64,000 nt of DNA, taken from assembly GCF_052425735.1 (NCBI RefSeq), contig NC_135762.1, positions 33,480,001-33,544,000 of the forward strand, written 5' to 3'. The position numbers and the translations under genes were made by a program. Within the stretch, counting starts at the first letter, position 1. Every line of letters begins with the position of its first letter. Origin of the DNA: Oculina patagonica (taxonomy: Eukaryota). The notes beneath the pieces are model-generated. The model saw only the letters and a program-made list of their open reading frames with translations, did no database searches and was not told where the DNA came from. This document shows, in pieces, positions 1 through 36,500 of this stretch.

Positions 1-489
1 GATACGATACTTGCTTCCATAAACTTCTGCCAGCTTCTTTTCCGCGTCAACTCCTGAGGTTTTTTTGTCACCAGCGTTTGAACGGATTTTGCATAAATCC
101 TCGGACTGTATACCTTCAAGAAACATGTTGCTGCGCTTTTCTACCGGCAGAAAAAGGTCCTCGAAAAGTTTGTAGACGTCGTAAGCGTTCGTATCCTGCA
201 GAGTATCTCCTGCAAACTTGACCACCATCCTTGAGACAAGCGCCCGGGTGACGTTGTTTACGAGAAAGTTGTTGGCATGGCCGCTCACCGTCAAGTTGAA
301 CACAAGAGCCAGGGAGCCTGGCACGAGAACGACGCCTTCTTCAAGCTTTGGCACAGCAACTCTCAGAATTTCTTCTGGAGACGCTTTATTCGGGTTAAAT
401 GTAACGCGATGTCGCACTCTGTCTGCCTTGAGCGCGTTTGGAGTTTTCTCTTCGAACGTTGGTTGGTGTCTTTCGCTCACGACAGCCAT
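1..489 (-). CDS. Probable major capsid protein (double jelly-roll), N-terminal 163 aa; runs off the left edge and is missing from the ORF track
   Basis: My translation from ATG at 489: MAVVSERHQPTFEEKTPNALKADRVRHRVTFNPNKASPEEILRVAVPKLEEGVVLVPGSLALVFNLTVSGHANNFLVNNVTRALVSRMVVKFAGDTLQDTNAYDVYKLFEDLF..., open to base 1. The beta-strand pattern resembles the first strands of Polinton-like MCPs (pattern recognition only, no search run). Confidence 0.65.
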   Translation of the reverse strand, partial: MAVVSERHQPTFEEKTPNALKADRVRHRVTFNPNKASPEEILRVAVPKLEEGVVLVPGSLALVFNLTVSGHANNFLVNNVTRALVSRMVVKFAGDTLQDTNAYDVYKLFEDLFLPVEKRSNMFLEGIQSEDLCKIRSNAGDKKTSGVDAEKKLAEVYGSKYRI

Positions 490-528: not shown

Positions 529-1721
529 ATGGCGGCAGAAGGTGGCTTTGGTGACAGAGATCCTCTTTTGGAACATACAGACGACCGTGACGACCGTAAT
601 GACAACGATGACAGCGATACAACAGGCCCATTCCAACCTGGAGGGGCATCAACGCCCGGACCTAGTGAAGGAATACCTGGGAGAAGAACCACAATGAATA
701 GGCCGGACGAAACAACAACGATGTTTCCTGAAATCCCCGACGATAGTGCGACAACAACCTTCACTGCTTCGAGTTATCTTGACAAAGAGTTTCCATCAGC
801 TGACAAATCAAAGATTAAATACAAAATAGATGGAAATGGAAGGCTGCAAGTCGGGTTAATTAAACCAGGTAAGCCTTATTATAATTTAACAACCAAAATT
901 CAAGGCAAGGAAGAATACCAGATAAATATAAGACTTCCCAAAGAAGTTTTAAAAGCCCTTGGTCCAAGTCGTCGATTAACTCTTGAAAATGAAATAAGAG
1001 GTCTTTCAGAAGGCATCAATAACAACAAAAAAACAGCAGAAGATAACAATGAAAGCCCGGAGGAAAGAAAAAAGCTAAAGAAAGAGCAAAACTACAAATT
1101 GAAAGGCGCACTGATCTACAGAAAGAATTAGATCGGTTGAAAAAAGTAGAGTACGAGCCTGTGATTGGGGTAACAATACCTTTACAAGAATTCCAGCAAC
1201 ACGAAACAGAAAGGCAAGAAAAGGAAGAGGAAATACAACAAGAGAGACAAGAACAAGAAAATATTGCAAACGACGAAAACAGGCCACAAGCGGAAAGACA
1301 ACAAGCTCGCGAAAGAGTTGATAACTTGAATCAAGAAATTAATGAAATAGAAAATGAAAGAGAAGAAGAGATCGAAAGATTGTCTTTAACAGACAAATTA
1401 AGAGAAAAGGTAAAAGCGATTTTCAAAAAATATGGCTTCACCGTCACAGCAGTTTTGCTTGCCGTTGGCACGACTATTGGCGTAATTCTGAGTTCTCTCT
1501 CAAACGGTTTAAAAGGTTTAGCAAAAGGTGTTGGTGACGGTCTTCAGACACTTGGCAAAAAAATTGCAAGTATTCTGCCGGGCCTCCTTGGCTCGATCGC
1601 CAGTTTTGTGTTTCGAACGGCCGGCCAGGTGATCAGCTTCCTCGGCAAGAATGCTTGGCTTTTGATTGTCGGTGTTGTTATCTTTCTTATCGAGCGAGTT
1701 ACAAAACGAAGCGAGCGCTAA
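529..1721 (+). CDS. Viral coiled-coil protein with C-terminal amphipathic and transmembrane helices (~397 aa), split by a -1 frameshift at 1068-1074
   Basis: ORFs 529-1131 and 1137-1721 join seamlessly (..EERKK/AKERAKLQIERRTDLQKELDRLKKVEYE..) if one A is added to the A6 run. Acidic N-terminus, Q/E coiled coil, hydrophobic C-terminus (FTVTAVLLAVGTTIGVIL...WLLIVGVVIFLI). Confidence 0.7.
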
Positions 1722-1768: not shown

Positions 1769-3418
1769 TCAAAGAGCTCGGCTGACTGCAAACGCAACAA
1801 TAACGGCACCAGCAATAAGGTAGGTTTTGTTTTTTTCGTGTGCTGTATCTTCAGTGTCTGGCTTCTGCTTTTCGTCTGTTTTTGTCACAGTACCCGCTGA
1901 AGGCGTATGTGGCGCCGGCTCTTTTTTTGCAGCTTTGTGAATCGGGTTTGAAGGATGACTTGTTGGTCTATTAACTTTTGATGGCCCACCGCTCATACTT
2001 GTTGCGCCCACTTTTTTTGTAGAGGTATTAACATCAAGATTAACCCCTAATTTCATCCCAACAACAGCCTGCTTAAGCTGGTTATTGTAGCCAACAACGC
2101 TTTCTGTGTTTATCACCATACGAGCGGGCATCAGCCAGGCACCTGGGCAGACGGCAAGGTTAAGCTGAACCTTAGCCTCATCGATTGCGAGTTGGTATCT
2201 TTGGACCGACTTTGCCAGATCAGGTTGCCTTATAGCGTCTTCAACCAACACGAGGAACTCACTTTGAGCCTCCTTTGCGCGGCCGCCTGTGCCAAGTATG
2301 CTACTTCGAACGTTCACCTGCGAACCGAGAATACAGTAAACAAAAGCCTCTATCGACTGGTTTACTCTCGACAAACCTGCCTGAGTCAGCCCTTCCGTGC
2401 CTTTTGGACAAAACCAGTCTGCCTGTGCATATGCAGCGTCGTCTGGCTCGATGTATTGAATCAAGTTACCTTTGCTTGCAGTTCCACCTTCATCCGAAAA
2501 TTTATCGTAATCGGGGTATTTTGCCCCAGAATTTTTCGGACCAATATTTGAGATCCAGATATAAACGTCACCCAGTCCGTGGTTCGCGCCTCTTGTGAAA
2601 CGAAAATCGCTTGACGGGTCGACACCGAACTCAGCGCATATTCTTTTGTAAGAAGCCACGTCGTACTTGTTGTCAAACTGGCTAAACGTTGGGTCGCCAG
2701 GCAAGGCGCTTACGCTCTGAATCCCCCCCATCTGAAACAATATTCGCCTTATCGTGAAATAAACGTGAAAAAGGTAAAAATTTCGCACAATCGGTGGCAA
2801 GCTAAGAGATGAGTGTTCTTCATCGAAAATTTCTCGGCTTACCCCACTGCCTGTTGTCGCACACCAAACAGCAAAGTTAAGTTGCTGAGGCCAGTAGCCC
2901 ATATTTTGGCTAGCAAGCCACCTTTTTGACTCTTTTCCTGATGTATGCTTCAGTTTTGTTTTTTGAAAAATCTCTCTTAATTTCGTTGTGAAATATTGGT
3001 CTGGTGTGACGTAGATGTTGATTTGGCTGTTAAATATTTTTTTCAAACTCGGTGCGGCTTCGTGAAATCCAACCGCGGGAATTGGCAAAGATGAGCCTTT
3101 TGCGCCGCTTGGTGACAGCTGTTGTGGAAAACCGCCTGAAATTTGATTCACCCCCAGTGCTTTTTTCATCTCTGGGCTCCAATATTTGCTGTCAGAGCCA
3201 AAAACATTTATCAAATGGCCTTGCCCTGCCTTGTAATAAATGTCTGCCGTTGCTGTGTGGTTGTACGCGAACTCAACCTGTGCAACAAATTTTGTTCGGT
3301 CAGCGTTTGGATATTTTGCAAGAAAAGGTTTCCATGCATTGTCTTTTGCCGCTTCAGAAATTTTAGTTGCTTCTGGGGTTTTCATCCACTTCATAAAATC
3401 TCTTGTTTTCGCATCCAT
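1769..3418 (-). CDS. Viral protein of unknown function, 549 aa, C-terminal membrane anchor
   Basis: Long intronless ORF with motifs WPQQLNFAVWCATTG and FHVYFTIRRIL; tail YLIAGAVIVAFAVSRAL. Confidence 0.8.
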   Translation of the reverse strand: MDAKTRDFMKWMKTPEATKISEAAKDNAWKPFLAKYPNADRTKFVAQVEFAYNHTATADIYYKAGQGHLINVFGSDSKYWSPEMKKALGVNQISGGFPQQLSPSGAKGSSLPIPAVGFHEAAPSLKKIFNSQINIYVTPDQYFTTKLREIFQKTKLKHTSGKESKRWLASQNMGYWPQQLNFAVWCATTGSGVSREIFDEEHSSLSLPPIVRNFYLFHVYFTIRRILFQMGGIQSVSALPGDPTFSQFDNKYDVASYKRICAEFGVDPSSDFRFTRGANHGLGDVYIWISNIGPKNSGAKYPDYDKFSDEGGTASKGNLIQYIEPDDAAYAQADWFCPKGTEGLTQAGLSRVNQSIEAFVYCILGSQVNVRSSILGTGGRAKEAQSEFLVLVEDAIRQPDLAKSVQRYQLAIDEAKVQLNLAVCPGAWLMPARMVINTESVVGYNNQLKQAVVGMKLGVNLDVNTSTKKVGATSMSGGPSKVNRPTSHPSNPIHKAAKKEPAPHTPSAGTVTKTDEKQKPDTEDTAHEKNKTYLIAGAVIVAFAVSRAL

Positions 3419-3464: not shown

Positions 3465-4160
3465 ATGGTTGTGCTCACTGTCACCACAACAGAAAATCCT
3501 CACACTGTGAATTTCGATTATCCTATTCCAAAACCGAGCTATATCCGGCTTTTAAGTTGTTCTCTTTACAACAGCTGGAATAGTTTAGAAAAGGATGGAA
3601 TAGTTTTTTATAAACAAGTGAACAAGGAAGAGAAGGCGCGTTATATACGGCAAGGAAACTACTCACTCGATGACATTGGGAGTATTTTTGAAAAAGGATT
3701 TCCAGAGAAAAACATGTTTTCTGTAACAAAAGGCATTGCAGGTCGTTCATTGATAATAAAAGCAAAAGAGCCCAATTTAAAAACTTTTGGACTGAATGGA
3801 AGTCTTATTAAGTTCTTTAATTTGCCTGGGTTTGAGAATTACGCAAGTATTGAAAAGGAATATTTTGAAACAATTGAGGTAAATAATGTTTCAAATCCTA
3901 AAAATTACTTCATCAACTGTGACCTTATCGACAAGCAACAAAGCTTGCTAAATGGTAAGCCATCAAGCCTTTTAGCGTTTTTTGACATACGTGGAAAACC
4001 GTATGAAAAAGTTTATTACCAAAATACACATTTTAACGTCTTGCGCGACGTTTCTGCTGAAGAAAATGTATCATCTCTGACTCTTTCGATTAGAGATGAG
4101 AATGGAAAGCCATTCGATTTTAACGGCTCAAATCTTACATATGAGTTGGAATTGAATTAA
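3465..4160 (+). CDS. Probable minor capsid protein (penton, single jelly-roll), 231 aa
   Basis: True ATG at 3465, after an AT-rich spacer. The C-terminal pattern YFINCDLID..LLNGKPSSLLAFFD...LTLSIRDENGKPFDFNG..LTYELEL is typical of Polinton-type pentons. Confidence 0.72.
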   Translation: MVVLTVTTTENPHTVNFDYPIPKPSYIRLLSCSLYNSWNSLEKDGIVFYKQVNKEEKARYIRQGNYSLDDIGSIFEKGFPEKNMFSVTKGIAGRSLIIKAKEPNLKTFGLNGSLIKFFNLPGFENYASIEKEYFETIEVNNVSNPKNYFINCDLIDKQQSLLNGKPSSLLAFFDIRGKPYEKVYYQNTHFNVLRDVSAEENVSSLTLSIRDENGKPFDFNGSNLTYELELN

Positions 4161-4196: not shown

Positions 4197-4856
4197 ATGT
4201 CATCTGCTAATGTTCTCCCGAGTGCCCCTGCTTATGGTGATCGCGAAGAAACACAACTTTATCCAAGCCTCCCAACAAATGCCGAGAATTTTCGGCTGAC
4301 TGAAATAAGTAAAATTGAAAAAGAAATATCCGCTGAAGCTGAGCATTACAGGCTTGTGTTAAAAAAATATAAAAAAGTCCGGAAAGTTATTCACTATTCC
4401 GTGGTCTGTCTTGGCGCCGTGACGGCAGCTCTGTCTTCTGGAGCTGTTGCAACTTCACTTACTGGTGTTGGAATTGTTATCGGCGTGCCTGTTGCAGCAG
4501 TAGCAGGTATATCTGGCGCAGCTTCCACTGGCCTGTCAGTTATCAACAAAAAGCTTGAACGTAAAGTTAATAAGCACTCAAGAATCCTCGCTCTGGCTGT
4601 TGCAAAACATGACTCGATAAACAGCTCTGTCTCACAAGCTCTGAATGATAATCTTGTTTCTGACAAAGAGTTTCAACTGATCTTACGAGAAATGCAGAAA
4701 TATCGTCAACTTAAAGAGACTTTACGTTCAAGCTTTGCACACAAACAAACAAATTCACAGCCAGACATCGAAAAAATACGACAAGAGATCATGAAAGCAG
4801 AAAGACAAAAAATGAAAAAAAAACTTCTCGAAAGCACCACCGACATTTCGAAATAA
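4197..4856 (+). CDS. Viral membrane-active protein, 219 aa (helix / Gly-Ala-rich hydrophobic hairpin / helix) with N-terminal PSAP and LYPSL motifs
   Basis: Central hydrophobic segment VVCLGAVTAALSSGAVATSLTGVGIVIGVPVAAVAGISGAASTGL is flanked by basic coiled coils. The layout is like small membrane proteins reported from animal Polinton-like viruses (from memory, unverified). Confidence 0.75.
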   Translation: MSSANVLPSAPAYGDREETQLYPSLPTNAENFRLTEISKIEKEISAEAEHYRLVLKKYKKVRKVIHYSVVCLGAVTAALSSGAVATSLTGVGIVIGVPVAAVAGISGAASTGLSVINKKLERKVNKHSRILALAVAKHDSINSSVSQALNDNLVSDKEFQLILREMQKYRQLKETLRSSFAHKQTNSQPDIEKIRQEIMKAERQKMKKKLLESTTDISK

Positions 4857-5839: not shown

Positions 5840-6030
5840 CTTCGTTTACTCAATAAGAGCATTTGTTCAATAGGAATTGTTTCTGGCACAGCAATTAAAG
5901 GTTGGTTGTAATTTAATACAATGGCGCCATACAACGATTGGTACACTGTCGGGTCCGGCGAATCTGCTTCAGGAAGTTAGGAATGTGAAAGCCACTCACA
6001 TTTTCCTCCTTTCACACAAAAGGGCTGGCC

Positions 6031-6209
6031 TTGCGGGCCCCACACACATGAGAGTTTTGGCATTGCGACCCCCACACACATGAGAGTTACCGGTTGTGGA
6101 CACAACTTGCAAAAAATAGCGAGGCGAGACTGGCGAGCCAGCGAGCCAGGCGAGCCCGAGCGGTTTTTTTTGCAAGTTGTGCCACAACCGGTAACTCTCA
6201 TGTGTGTGG
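6031..6209 (+). repeat. Terminal fold-back hairpin (6072-6209) preceded by a 32-bp-period direct repeat
   Basis: 6072-6116 is the reverse complement of 6166-6209 apart from one bulged A. TTGCG..CCCCACACACATGAGAGTT occurs at 6031-6056 and 6063-6088. Confidence 0.9.
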
Positions 6210-7345
6210 TGTAAATGCTCACGTCAATATAATGATGACCTTTTGAACGCTGGAAACTAGGCAATTATTATCGAGCTACCATACACAGGAGCGAAGACTG
6301 TTTATCATGATGTACAAATTTCGCGAATCATCACTTCCATATCAATGTAACCATTTTATGATTTTTCTAGCTGTAAGAAGAACTTAAGATCTCTGAGAGT
6401 CGTAAAAGCATGAAATTCGATTTCAGTGTATGACAAAGGCCGGGACAGTGTAATACTGCAAAGCGGCCAAACAAACGCATTTTGATTTAGTCGCGTAACT
6501 TGATTTACATTTATCCATGTACATCTTTTATTTTTGAAGGTTTTTGTTTGCACTGTAAAGAAAAAATTGGTCAAAATTCGAAATACAAAATACGAGGTAA
6601 AGTTTTCTATTTTTTAAAACAAAATAAATATTTGGTCGCATTGTGTAAATAAACGCGAGTCGCCGTCGAAATATTTTTTCTCAAAGACGTCTTGCTTTTT
6701 AAGCAAGACGAAAACACAAGTTCTTAACTGAACTGAAAACGAAGATTTATTTTCACAAAAAGCTTACAAATGTCTTAACTGGAAAATTATTACGTCCTGT
6801 TCAAGTGTTGAATAATCGTGACTTGAGAAAGAACTTTTAATTATGCGTGGGAACACGTGTCGCTAATTGGCTGTTTTTAATTGAAACTAATCGTGCGTGT
6901 TCGTACGGAGTCCGTTCTTGCAGCTGATCATTGTTTTCTACATTATAGCGAACGATTATCGATCCCGAACCATTCCCTTGGGATTGCTAACAGCTTTTTT
7001 CATATAACAAAGAGTCTAATGCGCATGCGCAAAGCGCACGCAAGCATTAGACTCAAAAAATTGTTGTTTTAGTTGCACATTGAATCTATGCGTGATTTGT
7101 GTTGATTTGTAGGTAGTCTATATAAAAGCGTTAACGTTGGAAATGATGCCATTTCACGGTGAATAATCGTAGGGTGAAGAACAATGTTTCAAACCGACAG
7201 TTTTCTGTTGTTTGTTATCTGTCAATTTCTTTAGTTCTTCTTTAAAGTGAATGAAGTGGTTAATAGTACTACTGTATGTGCTTCCTGTTCCCAGCTAGTG
7301 AAATGTTCTTGTTTTGAAATTCATTTTCTTTATCGTTCAAAACAG

Positions 7346-10300
7346 CTGACCGTCAGAACGCTTGCCCTCCCCAGTCCTGTGGTAGAGTCCATTCAATCAT
7401 GTCAGTGCGATGCAAAGGATGTTGTAGTTCGACTACAAGAATGTATGGATTTGGATCTAGTATCACTGGCTGAACCAGATCTTGAGACCGCACAAATGAT
7501 CCGCTGTGTTGCTAAAGCAGCTAAAACTGAAGACAGGCTTGATGTGGTCAAGCACTTGAGAGAGATCACACCTGCTGGCACAACTGGTAAGTTTGACAAA
7601 ATACTATGAAATGACAAGAGCAATTTTCCCATGGATAACCCGTTCTGTTTATAGTCCCTCTTTTGTACTCCATGGGTACGACCACAACCTCACAAACAGT
7701 ATTCAATCACCAATTCCTACACGACGATCATTTACCGTTTTTGAGATTGCTGTGTGGTTCAGATCCGTAAATAATACTCGTGATCATGGTCATTCACCTT
7801 GTTCAAGCTAAACTATAACTGGAGCACCTAAAAAACTGTTGAAACCCTATTTCTTTCAATTTTGTTCCATTGGTAAGCAGCTTCTGTGCTTACATATGAC
7901 TAGGTTTAAGTCAATACAGCAGTTTTTGGGCCGATACCAAACTTATCAATCAGTTTTTCAGCCGTCCTTCTCTCATCGAATTGATATGAAAATTACACCA
8001 GTTGTTGCTCTTAATTTGAAATTCAGCAAGGTGCATCTTTTTTTAAGGAAACGGATATTGCCATGACAACGATAAACAGAAAACTAGAAATCAGTAAAAC
8101 TTGAATTTTGCACGATCCAGATTTCATGTCAAGAAGCTATTACCAATACGGTAAACTACGGTGCATTGGCTATGAAAAATCTTTACGTTTAATTTTGAAT
8201 GAATCGCAAAAATCAATTTCTTTCACCAGAACAGTAGCTTTTTATATTTCTTTACGAAAAATGTTGCCTTGCTACAATTACTAACACAGATGAAATCTTA
8301 AATTTACGATCCCGTAAACGTGCCGTCTAGAAAGCGTTAAGATCCTCTTTACGAATCTATACGAACCTCTTTACACTTTCGTAAAGAACGTCTATACGCA
8401 TTAAAAACCATAGTGCATAAAGAGTGCGTAGTGAGACTCGAAACGTATCTTTACGCGTGTTGTAAAAATCGTAAAGAGATTGTTAACGAAATTTTACGGC
8501 TACTGTAAGGCGATCGAAAGTCGATCTTTACGCATTGTTAAACTTTCGTAAATGAGCAGTATTTAAAAGCCCATTGACGGCTTTGTATCTGTAGCATATC
8601 AATAAAGATAGCTTCCAAACAAGTAAACAACACAGCTTCAATATGGCTGAACAACACAACACTTTATTCGCTAAGCATCCTGGGTACATATGGTGCAATA
8701 GCCTAACACAACTTCCGGTTATGTAACAGTAGTCTAAATATATTACACTGCTTCCCCCTAAAAAGAACTAGCAATGTACTTCTACTTAAGGCATAATCTA
8801 CTGCTACAAGTCAAGTTTAATAACTGGTTTTCTAACCCTCTGAGATCTTCGCAAAACTAGTGGCGTGCTACTTTCAACTGTTGAAGATGCAATAGGATCC
8901 TCAGTTTCAGAGGAAGTTACACCTGGCTCGGAAATACTAACACTATCATCAGTAGCAATCTGATCACTTGACTCAGGCATCATGACCTCTGGTTCACTCA
9001 CATCATCTGGTACATTATCATGTGCCTTTATCATATGATCAGTGTGGACATATCTGGTTTTGTGTCCTGTCCTAACTACATACGTTCTAGGTCCACAAAC
9101 TTTAATTACAGTGCCAGGAATCCACTTATCCGTCTTAGAATTAGCCCTTGTGTTTCGTACGCGCACCCTGTCATTTCTTGTGAATGGCCTATCCCGCTTA
9201 CATTTCAGATCCTTGTACATTTTCTGTTTCTCCTGTTTATCTTCAACGACCTGTGCTAGATTAGGCTTAATTAAACTTAACCTTGTTCTTAGGCGACGCT
9301 TCACCATCAACTCAGCAGGGGTAACCCCGGTTGTACTATGAGGGGTAGTGCGGTACCTGAATAGAAAATTTGCAAGTCTATGTTTCATAGACATTCCCTT
9401 TTTACCCTCAAGCACTTGTTTGACCAATGCATCCTTAACGACTCTCACGGACCTCTCTGCTGCCCCATTGGATTGAGGGTGATAGGGTGGAACTAAGGTG
9501 TGCTTGATACCATTTTTGCGCATGAACTCAGAAAATTCAGTGGATGTAAATTGTGGTCCGTTGTCAGATACCACTTCTTCGGGTAGGCCATGAGTAGCAA
9601 AAATGAGACGGAGTTCATTGACAGTCCGTTCAGTAGTTGTAGAGGTCATATGTTGCACCTCAATCCACTTAGAGTGGCTATCAATTACAACAAGAAAGTA
9701 ATCATTACCCTTTTGACAGAAGTCAATATGAATCCTCTGGAATGGTCTGGTTGGCCACTTCCATGGGATCAGGGGTGCACTAGGTGGGGCATTTCTAACA
9801 TTTTGGCATACTGTGCAAACTCTCACTTCTTCCTCAATTTCCTGATCCATTTTTGGCCACCACATACACGTACGAGCAATTGCTTTCATACTACATATAC
9901 CAGGGTGCTCCCAGTGTAGCTGCCCCAACATCTTGGTTCTAAAGATCGGTGGAATAACGACCCTAGAACCCCAAAGAACACAATCCTGTTCACAGGACAA
10001 CTCATTCCTTCGGTTATGATATGGTTTCAGGGTCTCATCAGGACAACTCTCTGGCCAACCTGACATCACAAATTGATGTACTTTACTCAGAACAGGGTCC
10101 ACAAGTGTTGCCTTTCCTATATCCTCTGCCGTTACTGGAAAATCATCATCAATTGCACTCACACTATAAATTGCACTCTCACTTCCTACAGTGGAATTCC
10201 CATGTGGTAACCTTGAAAGTGCATCACAATTAGCGTGGTCTTCAGATCTTTTGTACTCAATCTCATAGTCATATGCTGAGAGTACTAGGGCCCACCTCTG

Positions 10301-13300
10301 CATCCGTGCTGCCGCTAGTGTTGGGATAGCAGATTTTGGACTGAGAATTGCCAACAATGGTTTGTGATCAGTAATCAAAGTAAATTTACGCCCGTATAAG
10401 AACTGATGAAATTTTTTTACACCAAAAACAATTGACAACGCTTCGCGCTCAATTTGTGCATAGTTCTTTTCACTTGAACTCAGTGTCCGAGACGCATAGG
10501 CAATTGGCCTTTCCTGGCCGTCGTCCATCACATGGCTGATGACAGCTCCGAGTCCATAACTGGACGCATCACATGCAAGTCTTAGTTCACGGTTCCCATC
10601 ATAATGCACCAAAAGTGCATCGCTGGTGAGACTTTGTTTACAAGCTTCGTATGCTTGCTGACACTCTTTTGTCCATACCCACTGGACACCTTTTTTTAGG
10701 AGCTCATGTAATGGTGCTAGTGTAGTTGCTAAATCAGGTAGAAATGGGTGGTAGTATTGGACCATACCCAAAAAGGATCTTAGCTCGCTTACATTCTGTG
10801 GTACTGGTGCTTTCTTTACAGCATCCACCTTCTCTTCAACTGGATGTAGGCCTTCAGCATCTAATTTCAGGCCTAAGTAGACAACTTCTGTCTTCAGGAA
10901 TTCGCACTTTGGCAATTTCAAATGAATGTTATATTTGTGCAGCCTTTCCAGGACCTCAGCTAGGATTTTGATATTTTCTTGCCAACTGACACCACCAATA
11001 AGAATGTCATCCTGCTTACAAACACATTTTTCTACCCCTTGCAAAATCATATCCATTTTAGCTTGGAAAATCTTAGGCGCTGATTTAACCCCATAGGGTA
11101 ATTTGGTGTAGGAATAGAGTCCTTTGTGAGTGCTTATAGTTAGGTACTCAAGGCTTTCGTTATCAACACTTAACTGCGCATATGCATGCGACAAATCAAG
11201 TTTGCTGAAAACTTTGGATCCTGAGAGGGCAGCGTACAAGTCTTGTTGGGTAGGGAGGGGATATTGTTCATCTTCTACAGCTGAGTTGATGGTTACTTTG
11301 TAGTCCCCACAAATTCTCACTGACTTGTCAGCTTTTGGTACAACTACTATTGGGCTTGCCCAGTTTGATCTTTCAGTTTTTACTATCACCCCATGCTTCT
11401 CAAGTTTATCCAACTCCTTTTCTACTTCTTCTTTCAGTGCATAGGGGACCCTTCGTGGTTTGATAAATATGGGCTTTGCACCATCTTTCATAGTGATGTG
11501 TGCTTCCAACCCTTTCATACCCTCATAGCTCTCTTCAAATAACTCACTATGTTTAGCTAAAAGATCATCAATTTGCCTTTTGGCACTAGTTGATTCACAA
11601 CTTGTTACACTGAATATTTCACCCCACTCAAGCTTCACATGTTTGAGCCAATTTCGACCCAGTAAAGTAGGCTTATTGTCATAGTTAGCTACAACCATGG
11701 GCAGTGTATACTTTTGGCCCTTGTACACGACATCACATTGCATCTCCCCACACACTGCAAGGGTTTCACCCGTATAGGTTTTCAATTCAACTTTTGATGG
11801 ATAAAGTGGGTAGTTACTGAATTTCTGAGTATACATACTCTTACTCATTATTGAGTAATCGGCAGCAGTATCTACCTCCATTGCACATGGTGAACCATTA
11901 ATGGTTGTTTCTACAGTATAACCTTTGTTGGTAGGATTATCTGTACCAACTGAGTACAAGGAATATATACCCAACTCATCATCGTCACCACACTCTTTGC
12001 GTGGTTCTAACAGAGTATGAACATTACCTTTACCCTTACTAGACTGATCTACATTTTTACTTTGGCACACCGATGCAATGTGACCGATTTTCCTACATTT
12101 ATAGCATGTTGCTGACTTAAACTTACACTTTGGTGCAGCATGCTTACCACCACATCGATAACATGAAGGTTCATTAGTGTTTACAGTCTCCAGTTTGTTC
12201 ACAGTTTCCAGTTTATTCACAATGCCTTCGCTGTCAACACTTGCACTGACAGGGCGGAATTCTTGGGTATTCTTCTCTGCCATCTCCATTGACTTTGCTA
12301 TCTGGCAAGCTTTCTCGAAGGTAAGATCTTCGGTATTCAACAGCTTATTCTGGATTTTGGGATTGTTCAATCCGCACACAAAACGGTCTCTCAGAGCTCG
12401 ATTTAAAAACTCTCCATAGTTGCAATGAATTGATAGCTTCTTCAATGCCACAATAAAGTCACTGATGGGCTCACCTGGTTTCTGGTGGCGTGTGCCGAAA
12501 TGAAAACTCTCCGCAATCTCTAATGGCGCTGGATTGTAATGCTTCTCAAGTGCCTTAACAATATCAGCAAAAGGAGTGTCTCTTGGTTTTGCTGGCACCA
12601 ACAGATTGCTCAGGGTAGAATATGCTTCAGGTCCAATCTCAGTCAGAAAAATAGCACGTTTCCTTTCTCTTACGGCGAGATTGGCATCCTCGTTTCCCTC
12701 GCCTGTTTCTTCTCGGATGTTATTCGCTAAGAAAAACATCTCCATTCTTTCAACATATGAGCGAAAAGTCTCTCTCTCTTGAACAAATTCGCCAACACGA
12801 CCGAATAGTACATTTGCCGCCATTCCGATAGGTTGCACGTGTTGAACGACTCGAAAACTTTAGCCAGCCGACTACTGTCAAAAACACACTTTTTCCTCAC
12901 ACAGAGAAAATCAAGGCTTCGTAGGGTTTCTCATGCGTCTTAGTGCATGTAGAGTGTAAGATCCTCGTCGCCAAAATGTAGCATATCAATAAAGATAGCT
13001 TCCAAACAAGTAAACAACACAGCTTCAATATGGCTGAACAACACAACACTTTATTCGCTAAGCATCCTGGGTACATATGGTGCAATAGCTTAACACAACT
13101 TCCGGTTATGTAACAGTAGTCTAAATATATTACAGTATCTTTCTGTATTCTTCGGCAATATTTGCTTTTTGGTAACCCGACTTTTATAAATGCAGGTTTC
13201 TGACAACATCTACATAACGCGCAACGCGCGCAACGTAAAAAGCCTATTCAGGACGTTTACGATATTTTACGCTTCCGTAAACTGCGATATAATTTACGCA

Positions 13301-27577: not shown

Positions 27578-30500
27578 CTGGAATAGACACAGTATATAAA
27601 AAAACAAAAACAATAAATATCTCTCTAACATCGTGAAATATTGGGATTTGGTAGTACTTTTTATCGTGTTGTAATGAGAAAGAAACCGTTTTGGCTTGGT
27701 TTAAGCTCATCAACTCTTTCAACCAGCATATCGAATCTAATTTTAAAGGATTTCTCCTTTATTTCACACGTTTCGGGGGTGAAATGCAAATTTATATTCT
27801 TATAAATTTTCTTGGACTCAACAGTCGTTTAAACTAAACGCGCCTCAAAATCACGTTAAACCCAAGTTTAACCTTAAGCAGTTCAAAATTCTCCAAAACT
27901 TTTTTTTTTTCCCCACCCAACCTTTTTGTTTTTTCTCTTTTTTTTTTAAACAAATATTTGTTTTAAAAAAAAAAAAGGCGCCTAAATTGAGGGCCGCCGG
28001 AGGAAAAAAGGAAGAGATTTTGGGAGAGCAGTCACAAGGAAAGCAGGAGACAAAAAGCAGTCTAAAATTTTCCTGAAGCTAATACGTACTTTCCCACTAG
28101 AGTGTAATGAATCCATGACATTCGAAGACCGCTTTCCCAGCGTAGAATCATGGCTTTGTACTCCGTCTGGAGATTGTCCATACATACGGACCGTGTTAAC
28201 TTTTACGTCCAGTGACGGAGAGGCTCGATTCGGGCGAAGAATGGTATTCAGCGTCTGCTGAATGTTACTCATGAACAGATTTAAGTCCTACAAATAATCA
28301 AATGAGATAAGAAATGCATGTAGAACTATGGCACGTTTTTGCTTGGATACTTTCACTGGATTATTATTGCGAGCTGAAAATGGAAAAAATAAATAAACCC
28401 ACTTGGAGGTTCAAAAAGCGGAAAAATGAGCCGTCACGACTAAATCACGATTGATTTATTGATTGATGATCNNNNNNNNNNNNNNNNNNNNNNNNNNNNN
28501 NNNNNNNNNNNNNNNNNNNNNNNNNNNNNNNNNNNNNNNNNNNNNNNNNNNNNNNNNNNNNNNNNNNNNNNNNNNNNNNNNNNNNNNNNNNNNNNNNNNN
28601 NNNNNNNNNNNNNNTTCTTAGGCAAATTTCAATGTTTGTCTATAGGCGGGCAGTCTTTTCAATCCAAGTTCTGTTGTTGCGCCATAAAAAAGCCCAGCCG
28701 ACGGCTTTGGAAGTTGCCGAGACCACAAAATTTGTTCCTAATATAAAGTTGCTCGTTGAATCTAGGCAGACACTTAATCACCGTTATCGTACATACCGGT
28801 ATATTCTGCTGAAGATTGTTCAAAGCAGTCCGTAGGTGGGGCTCACGAGGCTTTAGAGTCAGCGTGGACAACTCGCTGAACGTTAGGGACGGACACATGG
28901 AGCCGGTCATCTGCACGAACTGTCAAGTTACTACAGCAGATGAAACTACGAGGCTTGACAAGGTCTTCCACGGCAACCGCCTGTGTCAAACAAAAAATAA
29001 TTTATTCTTTACGAAAATAAGGAGGTTAATCAATAATGTATGCTTCGCTGAAATAAAAAAGGAAAATGGGGAAACCTTTAGTCCTCCCCAGAACTTTATT
29101 GCCACTAAATTGCACTCCTCGTCTGACAGATAAACGTTTTGAACGCTGGAAATAAAAACAAATAGCATTTCATTCAATTAATCAACACAAAATACAACGA
29201 CAAAGTAAAATCTTGGTTCTTCAGTTTTCGTTGTGATAAATAAGAGTGAATGCTGACGTTACCTCGAGCTGGAGAAAGAAGACACAGGACTGCAAAATAC
29301 CACTAAGCCAACAACATCTACTTCTGAACAGGACTGGAACGAACCACACCGCAACTCATCAAAGGAACAGGCCTAGAAAAGGAGTAATGTCGAATAAATT
29401 AACAATGAATCCACACAAACTGTCTGGTGGTTTATTAAAAAACGATTGCGTATGAAGTTTGATGCGTCGGCAATAAGTATCTAAAGAGAGTGGGCAAACT
29501 GCAAACTGGGAAGGCTGTTGATATTACCGGCGACTCGTAGCTACCAAATTTATCCATAATAAATCGACCCTGTCCTACCACGAGTACCAAAGATCGCTCT
29601 AAAGGGGGACAGATGCTCGAAATGCCAGGTCTTTAAATCTAAAGTGAAGGGTGCCGCATAATTACTAACTTAATAATAAACTGTGTCCCCTTAAACATAC
29701 AAATTTCAACTTCGTGTTGAAGCTCAACTAATCACATACTAGACTTGCACCAAGACGCCTTCTGAGCGAAGCGAGCCGAAAAGCGTCGCGAAGCGACGAT
29801 TAACCGCGCGTCGAAGAACTTAAGAAAGTCTTATCACATACCTGACGAGGCACGTAAACCATTCTTTTGACATCCGGGTTACTTGGTAGCTCTTCGTATC
29901 TTGTCGTTCGTGTTGCAGAGAGCTTTTGTAAGAATACGAAATTTCAGTCTAGAATAGTCACTATTTGTACAGGGCTCAGAGGAGTCAAATATCACGGTAC
30001 GTAGAAGTATCGGATCCTGTAAACAGGCTTTCAAACAGAAGGTAGAAAACGCTCCCTTACTAAGCAGGAAGCTGATTCTTCAAAGGGCAGGCAGTACTTT
30101 AGTTTATATTCATGGGAGCTTACTCCATGTCATGTTGCACGCAGGGTAGAGGGCTAAAAAAAGCTGTACAGGCTCCGTTTTATACAGCATTAAAAACCAG
30201 TCAATCGGCAAATCCAACGCCCGCAAAACCACACAAAAACTGTGACATCAAGTAACGTCAATCCAAAAGATAAGTCATTAGGAAGTGCAACAGGGGAAAA
30301 TGTACTCAAGAGAATCTACAGTGGATTTGAACTACTGGCTTGTATTTAAACATTTTCTGATTTGTACTTGCCTGTAGTTCAGAGGCGCCTTGTCGATTCC
30401 TGAAAAGAAAAGAAAATTAATACTCCACATAAAAAATCATAATAAATAAAAATAAAAAAGGTATACCATTGACATGGAAGAATGTCATTCACAAGTAACG

Positions 30501-33500
30501 AGCAGCAAATTGATTTTTTTTTTAAAAAGAAAAATAAAAGAAAAATAAAAGGTGAAGGGGATTTTTGACAAATTTGGCGCGAAAGATACAAAATAAGGTG
30601 TTACCTGACACCAGATGCCGTAAGGTGATAAATCCTTAATCGTGATCCTTCGCTCAACAGATGCATGACATCCTCGCTGGGCCGCCAAATGCTTAACACT
30701 GCATCTAAAACGATCATTGGTTATTAAACAAAATTAAAGCATATACTGGCATCGTTTCCACTTTGCATGCAGGCTTTCTAACTAGTCTCGCATTCAAACA
30801 ACAACTACACACATCAAATGGCATGATAACAAAGGTAGAATCTCTACATCGTGCCATCATCAATATTTCTTGGCTATATTGAACAAAAGATGTACTTACT
30901 TTGCCTGACTTGACCTTTGCACAAGTAGTCTGCAATCAGAACTTTCAGTAGAGGCACCACGTTTCTTTGGAGCTGGTGCTGAGAAGACAAATAATTGGCC
31001 AATTACTATCGCGCACCTGGTGCAGTTTTCTGGAAGTTTTCTAGCTTTCGCTATACAAGCTGGCTTCTTGCTATCGGGAAAAGTCATTTGACAAATGATT
31101 TTACTTAGCAACATCAATGCCGATAACCGCGCACTCCGCAAAGGCGAATTTCCAGCGACTGAAAAACATTTTGGCACAAGAAAACATTTTGTTGGTGTAA
31201 CATCTTAGTCACAGCTAAGATGTGGACGAAAAAAATGCCAAATAACTACAATGTACATACTGCGATTATCTTTCATGTGTTGAATCTTTCTGCCGCAGTT
31301 CAGATATATAAAATTTCATATAACCACTTTCATAATGTAAAACATTATTGTAAAACACAAACAATTAAATGAAGTCCCAATATGGTCTGCGGCACCATAG
31401 CCCAGTTGACAGAGCAACACAGTTAATGACTGATTTCATTCACACACATTACTTGTCACAACTTTAACAACAATAACCTGCTCCTCTTCCCGTTCCTTCC
31501 AAACTCGTTCAAACTTGCTCTGCAATTCTGCAAATTTCTTCTCCTGCAACAATCGCCGGTAATCGTCTAATGCTCTTATTTGGCGTTCAGAGAGACACTC
31601 CTAAAAGAAAAGAAAAAAATGAGAGGAGAGAAAAACACTTCACGGAAAACGAAAAGAAAAGCAGTCATAAGGCTGCGGGCTTTAACGGTCGTCTAGTGAT
31701 TGACTTCAAATGCTACACCCACTACTGGGGTGCCTGTGAGTATAAATTTTAATAATTTCTTTTAATTTTGTAACAACGTGGTGCGTAATATTGTGAGATT
31801 TCTATAAGTTTTATATAACAAAAGAAAACTTACTTTGACTGCATCAGGATCAGAGGCCTGGTTCAGAGCTTCATAAATTTCCTTCCCGTCATGCAAGTCG
31901 TCTAAATCACGTGACGAAAATGAAGGCCGACGGAACCTTGCGGATCTTCTCCTTTCTGCAATTTAACAAAAAGGAACACAATAACAACACTAGTTCACAT
32001 TGGTCTCTTAAAGAAATGTGGGTCTCCGCCATTCAAAAAAGTAGCCGGCGAAAAGACCGACTAATCGATCAATTTATCCATCTATCGATGGACAGTTACA
32101 CAAAGTCAAAAGTTGCACTTTGGTTCGAGTTGCAGCCGACTGACCTGGTTGTTGACATTCTTTTTCAAACTCTTCCTGTATTTTCAGGAACAGCTTTTCC
32201 CTTCGCTGATGTCGATCGGCTTCAAACCTTTTAGCTTCTCGTTCCTCGAGGCGAGAGTTACGAAAAATGTTGGTACCATCTGCCATCTTTTCCATCCACT
32301 GTGAATATAAATATGTAACAACACTGTGAATTGGCGTAGGAAAAAAAAAACACTGTTTTGCGCTCAAATATTTTTCTCTTTTCCATACCCAACCACAGAG
32401 TGATTTACTTTTTAAGTTTCGTCGCTTTGTCTATTACCTGTACAGGATACTGTCTCAAAACAATGACATCCACACAGCCTGTGAATCCTCCATCACCAAA
32501 CAAAGAGTCCAGCGGTAATGGGAATGCATGCGTGTGGCTATGGAATCCAAGTTTCACATCCCATCGTGCACGCCGGGTGGAGTTGGCATGAAGTCGCAGC
32601 ATCAGCGACGAGGGGGCCTGGTACATTAACAAAATAAAGAACCCTGAGTCAGGTTAAAATATACCTGGGGTTAAAACTGCTAACATTCAAAAGGATAAAA
32701 ATATGTTAATTACTTCTGCCCGCTAACAAAAGTTATCTATACCACCGACAATCGCAGTTCTTTTACTACAATTTTTTTTTCTTCTTTTTCTGAGCATGAA
32801 TATTGTCACAAAAGAATATCAACAACTCGCTCCCCTCTACACCCTCTTCTCCCCCGCCTGGTAGCACATATTCATGACGACTCACGTGTACCTCAAGAGG
32901 GGAGACAGCCTGTTCGGATCCTATCAGCTCAGCCCCATGCACGAACAGCTTTTGCCCCACAACAATCTTCCCGTCATGCAGCAGTCTAGCAAGCGGTCTG
33001 TCCAGCATGGCCCGGATGCTATACCAACCATCTGTTACCTCTATGATGGCACAACTCTGCAATAACAATTTAAAGAATTGTTTTAAAAACAAAAGGCTAT
33101 TGAACAAAAACCATCTATTGCAAACGGGAAAGAAGCCCAATAGTAGTATGCTCGCTTTCGGGTTGGCTATTAAAAAAGCTACAAAATCATTAAAAAAGCT
33201 TCTCATTTAATTTGATGATTACTTTAGCAAACGATCAGAGAATCACTGAAGGATTTTCAATGTGTCAACGTAAAATTTTCTGTTACAATATCACTTCAGA
33301 GCTGTTATCTATGGCACAGCCAATCTGAGAGTTCCATCATCCATCACTCGATGGAGTGTATTTATTAGAAATGTCCTCCAGATTGTCGAAGTTACATAAA
33401 CAAAACAAAATTAATGTAGAAGTAGCTACCTCCATTTTACTAACATTGCCCTGTCCGTCTTTTCCACCATCATCATCCTTCTGTTCTGTAGCAGTGTTCT

Positions 33501-36500
33501 CAGTTACCGTCACGCTGGACACACACAGCACCATTGTGCGACTGGATATATCATCACGTTCCATTATTTTCTTCAATGCAGACCTGAAAGTTCAAGATAA
33601 CAAATCAAAATCAGGTAATTTCGTATTTGTTCAGATCTCGTGTCGAGTCGGTGATACCTGTTGCTGTTATCGATTTCACGGTCATATCTGTACTTGAGTT
33701 GGCACAAAACCCAGTCTGGAGTCAAACACCTAAAAAACAAAAACAGAGACCACTGTAAGACGGCCTTGAAAGACAGGAAAAACGCCCCAGTAATTGATTT
33801 AGAAAAGTTTTTTACTTACTGTAAGTGTACATGCAAAGTAACTGCAATTGTAGCCACAGAAGGGCGTGAACTAATATCAAGTTTAAAACAGAATAGATCA
33901 GATGTACATTTTGACGCTCGTATCTCTAAGTACAGAGCGAGCATAAGTATAAAAACATCTATGCTTTTCTGTCAATGAAATCATGTTACTACATTTCCCT
34001 ACTTTTCCCGACTGACAACAATTCCCAGTACAAAAAATCTCACCACTTATCAATAAACTTTGTGAAACTGATCATAAAAACAGTGACTAGAGAAAACTGC
34101 ATACATTACACAGGACGTGTATACAAACGAGCCATGATATAACTAACTTCTGCTTACAATGCTCAAAGTTTTTAGTCCCAGTCTAAGAATTATCTGTAGT
34201 TTTACTTGAATTACGTAAAAGGAAAACTTGCCTTCCAGCAAATTGACGTGGAAAAGCAACTTCCATGGCGGCTAGTTTCCATACCAACCATCTGTAATGA
34301 TTAGCGATCCAGTGTTTACTGATCAACTGACTGTCCACTCCAGGTGTGCTAAGAAATGCACTGATGAAGCAAAACAAAATCTTGTCAAAGTTCTTATTTA
34401 TAACATCGCATGCTTCCACACATGGACAAAACAAATCAATCTTGAAGACAGCCTCCATACAAAAAAGAGCCGGATTTTTCTGTATTTTCAAGTGCGGGAC
34501 AACGAGATATTTGTCACAACGGGACAAAGTGTACTGAAATGGCCTAAAAAGTCACCTGAAGTTCGGTTGTAGCTCCAAATAGCTTGCATTTCTCATCGTT
34601 TTTACAAAGCTTTACATATACCATCATTTCTCGTTTCGGAACAGTCATGTCAGGTTGAAATTGTAAGATTTTATAGCAAATTTATTTCACTACGATGGCA
34701 AGCGTTCCAAAATAAAGGCACAGACTAATAAATAAGCAATATTACATGATGCAGTGGTTGCAAATTTTTGTCTGTCACACAGCGTCAAGGATTGGAATGT
34801 CGAATAAATATTCTCATTGCTCTTTTTTTTTGCATTCACTTACTTTTGTATTTCTTCCAGGGCCACGCAGCCATCATTCCCGGCATGCAACACTCCCCCG
34901 TCCTCTGTCCTAACACTAGCCTCGCTGGACAACACAGATTCACTGAAATACTTAATTCCCACAAACCGGAATGATTCCGCATTGGAAGAAGTAACAGAGA
35001 TGATCTCTGGAGACACACCCAGTTCAATCAGCTGAAATTTGAGTAAAGACAAAAACCCATTAATATTGTTGATTAGTTTACCTTAGCAGCTCAGCTTTTT
35101 AGCTTGCCATTTGTGAAGGCCGTTTTTAATTATAAACGAACTCTTGTAGATTGGATAAGACAAGCCACCTTACCTCTGCATTTGTGTATTTTCCTGGCAG
35201 TGTGCCGTGTCCAACATAATCTTTCAGCTTTATCCTTTGATTGTGTTGACGCAGTTGAGACAAGAAACCAGGCTGCGGTTTGCATTTGCACTCGGTCTGA
35301 AATAGAATACTCAGAGTAGTGACCTATTATCATCTGACCATTTGAATCAGTAGTTACAAAAGGTGGTATCAGACTGACTAAGCTGGTATCAGTCTAAAAG
35401 CCTCAATAGACGGCTGAACTTGCTAATTCAAGTGAAGATAATGGTAACGTCCGTTTCAAGCTCAGGGATCGGTGAGTCCCAGAGGTTTCCCTTTGCCGTT
35501 TGTGAAAACAGTCATGATACAGAATATATTCCCCAAAAAAATGTGAACTACGCTAACCTTTGAAGCAGTTTCACGATGACCGCTCTTCGTGTTCAATGAA
35601 CTATTAGGCGTTGAGATTCTTGGTTTCTTTGAAGACGGTTCCACACAATCTTTACCTTGAACCTCTGATGAACTACTGACCGGTAACCTGGAGCTGCTAC
35701 AACGTGCAAGAGGAGAGACTTCTCTACCAGCTTCTTGTTTTCTGTAAGGCGTGGTAAACTGAGGGCGAGGACCACACATCCTTCGGTTTGCGGTGGAATT
35801 TAAAGGAGTGCTAGTTCTTGGTAAGGGTGCAGATTTGGACCTGAAGCAGCCTGGTGTAGTAACTCGAAGTGGCCTCAGTGAACGATTGCCATCTGACCCT
35901 CTGGGCAAGACGACAGTTAATAAACATTTTTATAGTTATTGAGAAAAAAGTTAAGATAAAATCTGCGTTCGGGCCTAGTGGCCCATCAGGCTGGAGGTTT
36001 ACGTGGCATTAAACGAATAGGAGGATTTCTACACCTCCCTGGATGATGGAAAGCTAGTCCATCGCAGGGCTCCCTCCCTCCTCCCTCCCCCCCCCCCCCC
36101 CCTCCCCCCATTAATTTCGTGTGAAATTTTGTTTGAATGAGTCCAACAGTTAGCCGGTGCTAATGCTGGTTTCCATAGTATAAATCGCTACTCTCCCTGG
36201 ATGGGATGCTAGTCCATCGCAGGTACAATGTGCACTGGTTCATTTATCTATGGTGGAGAGGAGTGAAAGAGCAAAGTATCTTACCCCCAAAACAAAAAAC
36301 CTTAAGACTACCCCCCAATAATACAAATAAAATTTAAAGGGGACCTTTTTTTGGGGCTCTCAGCTTCCTTACTTTCCAAAAAAAAAAAAATTTTTAAAAA
36401 TTAAAAAAAAAAATCAAATGTTTTGGTAGTAGTACCTTGGTGAACAAGTGCTTTCCACAGTCGTCAGGCGTGCCCGCAAAGGAGGATGGAACCGTGCTCG

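Follow-up and report, generated by a model that had tools for sequence, protein, structure and literature searches.

The locus and the mobile element

The analysed window is a 64,000-nucleotide stretch of the Oculina patagonica genome (NC_135762.1, positions 33,480,001 to 33,544,000, forward strand). Close to its start lies a 219-aa open reading frame (ORF), whose closest named matches are hypothetical proteins from the stony corals O. patagonica (98%) and Desmophyllum pertusum (63%). The ORF belongs to a Maverick/adintovirus element of 15,275 bp, the left end of which is located ∼9 kb before the window start. The features of the element that fall within the window are listed in Table 1.

Table 1. 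Features of the Maverick/adintovirus element within the window (residue numbers refer to the 219-aa protein).
Feature	Position	Strand	Remarks
Putative major capsid gene (416 aa), 5' part	1..489	-	Runs past the window start; assignment based on its size and on its position next to the ATPase
Coiled-coil and two hydrophobic segments	529..1720	+	Disrupted in this copy (spans two frames)
Conserved 549-aa ORF of unknown family	1769..3418	-	Hydrophobic C-terminal end
Penton-like (minor capsid) gene	3465..4160	+	Weak match (HHalign E 2.6e-4, 199 columns, probability 42%) to the ATPase-adjacent gene of L139/L145
Predicted SLATT-like two-helix membrane-hairpin protein with late-domain tail (P0001)	4197..4856	+	219 aa; last ORF of the element
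PSAP, residues 8-11	4218..4229	+	Predicted TSG101-UEV ligand; optional in the family
LYPSL, residues 21-25	4257..4271	+	Predicted ALIX V-domain ligand; core motif
Polybasic stretch preceding the hairpin, residues 56-63	4362..4385	+	
Uncharged Gly/Ala/Ser-rich hairpin (54 residues), residues 64-117	4386..4547	+	Predicted: two membrane helices, 4-residue turn
Polybasic stretch following the hairpin, residues 118-127	4548..4577	+	K123, K126 and H127 near-invariant
Right terminal inverted repeat, 195 bp	6013..6207	.	100% identical to the left copy at L033:933-1127
Target-site duplication, 5 bp	6208..6212	.	Empty site visible as a loose contig end in three public runs

The first-pass annotation had placed the ORF in a Polinton, and this was confirmed by the presence of terminal inverted repeats (TIRs), a family B DNA polymerase, an integrase and an A32-type packaging ATPase. 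A 1346-aa ORF, which we take to carry the family B polymerase motifs, was 39% identical to the polymerase of L139, a TIR-bounded adintovirus-like contig that also carries a parvovirus-type phospholipase A2. The ATPase matched Pox_A32 with an E-value of 6.8e-11, and the rve integrase fell just under the cut-off (E 1.3e-6). The 416-aa capsid candidate gave no Pfam, PDB or HHalign match. A gene for an adenain protease was sought in 13 ORFs or frames of the element with no Peptidase_C5 match, and the candidate of L139 itself reached only E 0.043. None of the element's ORFs was recognisable as a fusogen or as a glycoprotein with a signal peptide.

At least 150 close copies of the element were found in this genome (150 of the 442 candidates were scored), all of them 93-100% identical and 23 with the top score. 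Given these copies and the identical terminal repeats, the element is considered to be a young, expanding Maverick/adintovirus. More distant subfamilies also retained both motifs. The gene is linked to capsid genes: of 51 metagenome loci with sufficient flanking sequence, 49 had the penton-like gene immediately before it in the same orientation, and in two distant virus contigs (L139 and L145) the homologue is flanked by penton/pX-like genes on one side and, on the other, by a double jelly-roll capsid gene confirmed with Pfam. Contigs of four public runs overlapped parts of the ORF, but they extended into non-coding and flanking sequence too, and an RNA origin is a guess for three of these runs; such coverage does not establish expression.

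Hydrophobic segments were also observed in other genes of the element (529-1720, plus strand; 1769-3418, minus strand; L033:6333-8595, minus strand). The repeat enclosing the element (6208-7059) showed deep coverage in three of the four runs examined. Just upstream of the element (L032:7919-10000, plus strand), a long single-exon ORF with P-loop and WDFGGQ motifs resembles, by eye, a ROC/COR-like GTPase. Elsewhere in the window, an unbroken 1339-aa ORF (8804-12823, minus strand) with zinc knuckle, protease, reverse transcriptase, RNase H and integrase motifs was identified by eye as a Ty3/Gypsy-type retrotransposon. A set of exons carrying numerous BRC-like repeats, together with an OB-fold-like exon (32766-42431, minus strand), is, again by eye, probably BRCA2 with an expanded repeat array, and a trypsin-like serine protease exon with a GDSGGP motif was located at 47463-47930 (minus strand). 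The sole N run of the window (28472-28614) is distant from the 219-aa ORF.

Conservation of the two motifs

The PSAP and LYPSL motifs open the ORF, and the positions originally reported for them were reproduced from the translation. When the first 30 residues were shuffled, both motifs arose in 5 of 200,000 shuffles, and neither was present within the first 45 residues of any of 183 unrelated viral ORFs. Among the element's 32 ORFs of at least 60 aa, P[ST]AP or YPx[LI] was found in the 219-aa ORF only; YPxxxL was seen in one other short ORF of the element.

Relatives were obtained by a search of 50%-identity representatives, from which the best 150 of 1143 matches were taken. Forty of these were dropped as the start of the core was unaligned and seven as the tail was shorter than 12 aa or lacked a start methionine, leaving 103 proteins. 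The null for the 74 relatives less than 50% identical was derived from 2000 tail shuffles. Among these distant relatives, drawn from the best 150 of 1143 matches, YPx[LIVM] was detected in 58 of 74 (shuffle mean 2.8, maximum 10), P[ST]AP in 36 and absent from 38 (mean 0.4, maximum 4), and both motifs in 27 (mean 0.01, maximum 2). As the motifs of the query can bias the homologue list, a motif-blind subset was also counted, consisting of the 36 distant members whose core alone clears the list cut-off; YPx[LIVM] was present in 28 of these, P[ST]AP in 16 and both in 13. Outside the tails, the rest of the 103 kept proteins (16,893 aa) contained PSAP zero times and YPxL once.

The arrangement of the motifs was variable. 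The spacer between them ranged from 0 to 19 residues across the kept relatives, and their order was reversed in 8 of the 27 double-motif distant relatives. The x of YPx was occupied by 14 different residues, position 1 of the YP motif was Ile and not Leu in 25 of 81 cases, and the ratio of S to T in P[ST]AP was 48:10, with PNAP, ASAP and PSVP as variants among the relatives. LYPxL was doubled in three members (P0049, P0050 and P0054). P23 was invariant and Y22 at least 90% conserved among 66 selected full-length distant members. PPxY occurred in 5 of the 103 relatives and is not a family feature. A second clade, retrieved with a motif-containing profile, provided 99 new proteins, 89 of them with a tail and many of them nearly identical copies; 85 of the 89 tails carried YP, 54 carried P[ST]AP and 51 carried both, the order being reversed in all 51. 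Many of the second-clade tails that lack P[ST]AP read PNAP.

A quick tree of the core was built from 77 of 81 rows (four were dropped for want of an anchor), and its starred branches require at least six changes to account for the reversed order. Seven rows of the quick-tree set have no tail, and in the tail-less homologue of L139 (L139:9887-10420, minus strand) a stop is located just ahead of the start. Since such members exist, one of them within a TIR-bounded contig, the core should have a job that does not involve the ESCRT motifs. These natural relatives offer a ready contrast for the role of the motifs. Other searches added little: protein-pattern scans of viral contigs gave zero relatives, DNA-pattern searches gave true homologues at 1 of 22 loci and at 1 of 6, and the phage collection held no match to the protein.

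Selection within the tail was assessed by pairwise pN/pS on 31 intact coding sequences (30 distinct ones from 80 loci, and the window), with kinship ignored. The linker had a ratio of 0.63 and x one of 1.0, compared with 0.28 for PSAP and 0.30 for L-Y-P-L. In the coral clade, residues 1-7 were as constrained as the motifs (0.23). Y, P and the final L are fixed and x is free, as expected of LYPXnL, and the P(T/S)AP consensus is conserved in homologues and lies in a segment predicted to be accessible and cytosolic. Conservation across homologues was the computational refutation test set by the first-pass annotation, and the motif pair withstood it through constraint across deep homologues, mobility, order swaps and a lower pN/pS than that of the linker. 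On these sequence comparisons the pair behaves as selected docking motifs, with YPxL the core motif of the family and PSAP an optional one.

The putative host partners were also sought. The coral genome contains ALIX V-domain exons and UEV exons. Alignment of the ALIX exon with human ALIX showed that the Phe equal to F676 is kept, and alignment of one of four UEV matches showed that Y68 and M95 of TSG101 are kept; we take these residues to be the ones forming the motif-binding pockets. The four similar TSG101-type UEV exons (L039-L042, located on G000 C2, C13 and, twice, C1) suggest paralogues or pseudogenes.

Predicted fold and comparison with known systems

A hydrophobic hairpin had been noted behind the motifs, and the present analysis recovered it: residues 64-117 contain zero charged residues, two hydropathy peaks (1.65 and 2.08) were observed, and a hairpin was predicted. 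A first AlphaFold model from close homologues (pLDDT 57) was superseded by one built with 66 divergent sequences (pLDDT 89.6). In the latter, helices 29-87 and 92-150 form one long hairpin, followed by helices 156-186 and 191-218. Residues 1-20 were of low confidence, and residues 21-30 had a pLDDT of 83, so that YP may pack against the protein's own helices. As the turn comprises only four residues, both hairpin ends would face one side, which the basic flanks suggest to be the cytosol. A three-copy complex prediction scored 0.00, which counts neither for nor against an oligomer.

The best structural matches were uncharacterised proteins of three invertebrate iridoviruses (UniProt S6DF61, A0A068QKD3 and A0A5B8RH66; E 6.5e-8 to 5e-7), extending over the full length at 21-24% identity and with a high rmsd (13-25 Å). 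The next Foldseek rows were giant-virus proteins, several of them SLATT-annotated (E 0.007-0.08), and rows against orbivirus NS3 were weak (E 0.18-0.37, TM 0.29-0.37). Foldseek against the PDB gave nothing at E 0.001, the 66-member profile run against PDB sequences had no match below E 0.04, and Pfam gave nothing above cut-off for the query. NCBIfam SLATT_1 matched 31 of the 66 members at E up to 0.05 (best 2e-6), all below cut-off, the query scoring 19 bits against a cut-off of 41. Pfam SLATT_1 matched 6 of the 66 and was not among the best 25 of 50 families listed for a set of 31 members. The SLATT layout, two transmembrane (TM) helices and then a helical cytoplasmic region, is present in the predicted model, and we read the protein as a probable distant SLATT-like fold.

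Other folds were considered and set aside. For a BAR or ESCRT-III fold, the VIA scan returned only generic coiled-coil/BAR rows, with Z up to 11.4, a range common for helical bundles. Weak N-terminal RTX matches in 10 of 66 members were deemed compositional, owing to the Gly/Ala-rich hairpin, and the family Pfam scans gave no gasdermin or pX match for 'GasderminX'. The ESM Atlas contained unnamed look-alike clusters (viral, mollusc-rich and Preplasmiviricota) with recognition scores below the 2300 mark, which serve as leads only.

Viral SLATT proteins of adintoviruses, polinton-like viruses (PLVs) and Nucleocytoviricota share the two-TM hairpin and helical C-terminus predicted for the coral protein (PMC12220804). 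The coral family gives sub-threshold SLATT_1 matches, below all curated cut-offs. SLATT genes are labelled on the Hydra and Stylophora adintovirus maps in PMC8502044 (Fig S2), and it is likely that the 'SLATT' of that paper is the family of the coral protein. For viral SLATTs, the available portions of the literature propose pores, entry or lysis and do not mention late domains (PMC12220804, 10.64898/2026.10.13.758929).

Orbiviruses provide a parallel in layout. The NS3/NS3A protein of bluetongue virus is ∼220-230 aa long, near the 219 aa of the coral protein. In common with the coral protein as predicted, it has N-terminal late domains including PSAP, a predicted coiled coil and two TM helices, the first of them preceded by polybasic motifs. 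By bridging capsids to TSG101 and NEDD4, it drives the ESCRT-dependent, non-lytic exit of a virus that has no envelope, through budding and release in vesicles (PMC7409164). The same source points to differences: PSAP of NS3 is paired with PPRY and not YPxL, and a 21-aa glycosylated luminal loop stands in place of the 4-residue turn. NS3 also differs in coming from a dsRNA virus that assembles in the cytoplasm. NS3, seemingly the best-studied protein with such a layout, is treated here as an analogue and not as a family member.

Retroviral Gag resembles the coral tail in carrying both motif classes, position-independent and in a flexible segment (PMC8402826 and PMC3558412). The motifs are PTAP and LYPXnL in HIV-1 p6, PSAP and LYPAL in MLV, LYPSL in RSV and YPDL in EIAV; the coral LYPSL is thus identical to the RSV late domain (PMC3558412). 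The Gag motifs, however, are on a capsid polyprotein, whereas those of the coral are on a predicted integral hairpin protein. Adenovirus protein VI is membrane-active. It is a further protein of a non-enveloped relative with a late-domain motif, but this is a PPxY that engages Nedd4 and acts at entry (PMC2841620), and there is no TM hairpin. Within the iridoviruses, one member encodes its own CHMP4 (PMC12452177).

Proposed function and rival explanations

Constraint of the motifs in deep homologues, their mobility and order swapping, and their lower pN/pS relative to the linker make ESCRT recruitment at a membrane likely. It is probable that the tail binds ALIX and, slightly less so, that it binds TSG101. 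Given binding, exit from the cell is the use we rate highest, with evenly balanced chances. The protein is probably a virus-encoded membrane adaptor that recruits ESCRT, most likely for non-lytic, membrane-wrapped exit of Maverick particles, a reading that we favour over its rivals at slightly less than even odds. In such a scheme, the hairpin would insert in the membrane with both ends cytosolic, and LYPSL would bind ALIX and PSAP would bind TSG101, concentrating ALIX and ESCRT-I at the membrane. Tethering of capsids to an endosomal, plasma or nuclear membrane would fall to the C-terminal helices or to a partner, and ESCRT-III would cut the neck, resulting in non-lytic, membrane-wrapped exit as with orbivirus NS3.

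Motif retention, the hallmarks of linear motifs, pN/pS, the hairpin model, the host pocket residues and the linkage to capsid genes speak for exit. Against it stand the absence of PSAP from 38 of 74 distant relatives, the tail-less relatives, the lack of a recognised fusogen, probable nuclear assembly and the entry precedent of adenovirus protein VI, together with the equal constraint on residues 1-7, the frequent Ile at YP position 1 and the pLDDT at residues 21-30. Regarding assembly, the element is without an RNA polymerase; capsids therefore probably form in the nucleus, which complicates budding at the plasma membrane. The first-pass annotation had proposed ESCRT-driven budding or quasi-envelopment, or membrane remodelling, for non-lytic egress. 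Its recruitment component stands as likely, while the budding step remains conditional in view of the missing PSAP, the tail-less L139 homologue and protein VI. The annotation had also called the virus group usually non-enveloped, and this needs a caveat, as nematode Mavericks with a gB-like fusogen have been proposed to be enveloped (10.1101/2022.07.12.499685).

Alternatively, the protein may be a virion membrane or entry protein, packaged with an internal membrane or as a membrane-lytic component and using ESCRT in endosomal escape or trafficking, or in assembly of an internal lipid layer. Iridoviruses, whose proteins are the best structural matches, have internal membranes, and the location of the L139 and L145 homologues, with penton/pX-like genes to one side and hexon genes to the other, also agrees with a virion role, as do the several other element ORFs with hydrophobic segments. 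Such proteins, with no maturation protease recognised, would fit a lipid-layered particle. PPxY of protein VI, moreover, is used at entry (PMC2841620), and SLATT has been proposed for PLV endosomal escape (PMC12220804). P(S/T)AP and YPxL, however, are best known in release (PMC8402826), and we consider an entry or virion role unlikely.

A SLATT-like pore or viroporin for lysis or abortive defence is given a similarly small share. Here, the ESCRT motifs would direct the protein to multivesicular bodies or vesicles, control its amount or tie up the membrane-repair machinery, with no wrapping of capsids. The 31 of 66 SLATT_1 matches, all below cut-off, the weak RTX matches from the Gly/Ala-rich hairpin (10 of 66) and the tail-less members are compatible with a pore. 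So are bacterial SLATTs, which are predicted pore effectors (PMC9226505), and polisuvirus SLATTs, proposed for lytic egress or abortive infection (10.64898/2026.10.13.758929). Two independent ESCRT entry motifs, repeatedly regained and reordered, nevertheless exceed the needs of simple turnover. As viroporin and egress roles coexist in NS3, a pore would not be exclusive of the adaptor.

Explanations outside ESCRT are, taken together, improbable. The greater part of this small probability goes to motifs that are not ESCRT ligands, YPxL packing on the protein's own helices or binding another host or viral protein and PSAP being a proline-rich by-product. The pLDDT of 83 at residues 21-30, the frequent Ile at position 1 and the PNAP, ASAP and PSVP variants would suit this explanation, but YP lies at widely differing distances from the core, some members lack the tail or carry the motif twice, PSAP is found on either side of YP, and the joint occurrence of two motifs from one pathway far exceeds chance; we rate it as quite improbable. 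Chance motifs in a disordered tail, conceivable as the motifs are short and motif-including homologue searches favour them, are very improbable and, as far as computation goes, refuted by the shuffle nulls, the motif-blind subset, the background ORFs and pN/pS.

In the literature searched, which lay mostly outside subscription journals and also takes in the available portions of 10.1101/2024.03.25.586562, PMC11131425, 10.64898/2026.06.19.733378 and 10.64898/2026.09.30.755861, no link of Polintons, Mavericks or adintoviruses to ESCRT or late domains was found. SLATT genes in adintoviruses were already known; what the analysis adds, judging from sequence, is a selected late-domain pair on a predicted SLATT-like hairpin protein of animal Mavericks. 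Two textbook docking motifs on a capsid-linked gene make it testable how animal Polintons exit from cells and arrive in germlines. A more sweeping proposition is that animal Mavericks/adintoviruses exit as quasi-enveloped DNA viruses by ESCRT budding, via a SLATT-derived, NS3-like adaptor shared with iridoviruses. We hold this as a possibility on the doubtful side; if true, it would allow spread from cell to cell, into the germline and between species with no lysis and no fusogen. The motif pair also gives a first mechanistic handle on viral SLATT-like proteins, hitherto guessed to be pores, and draws attention to the uncharacterised iridovirus proteins.
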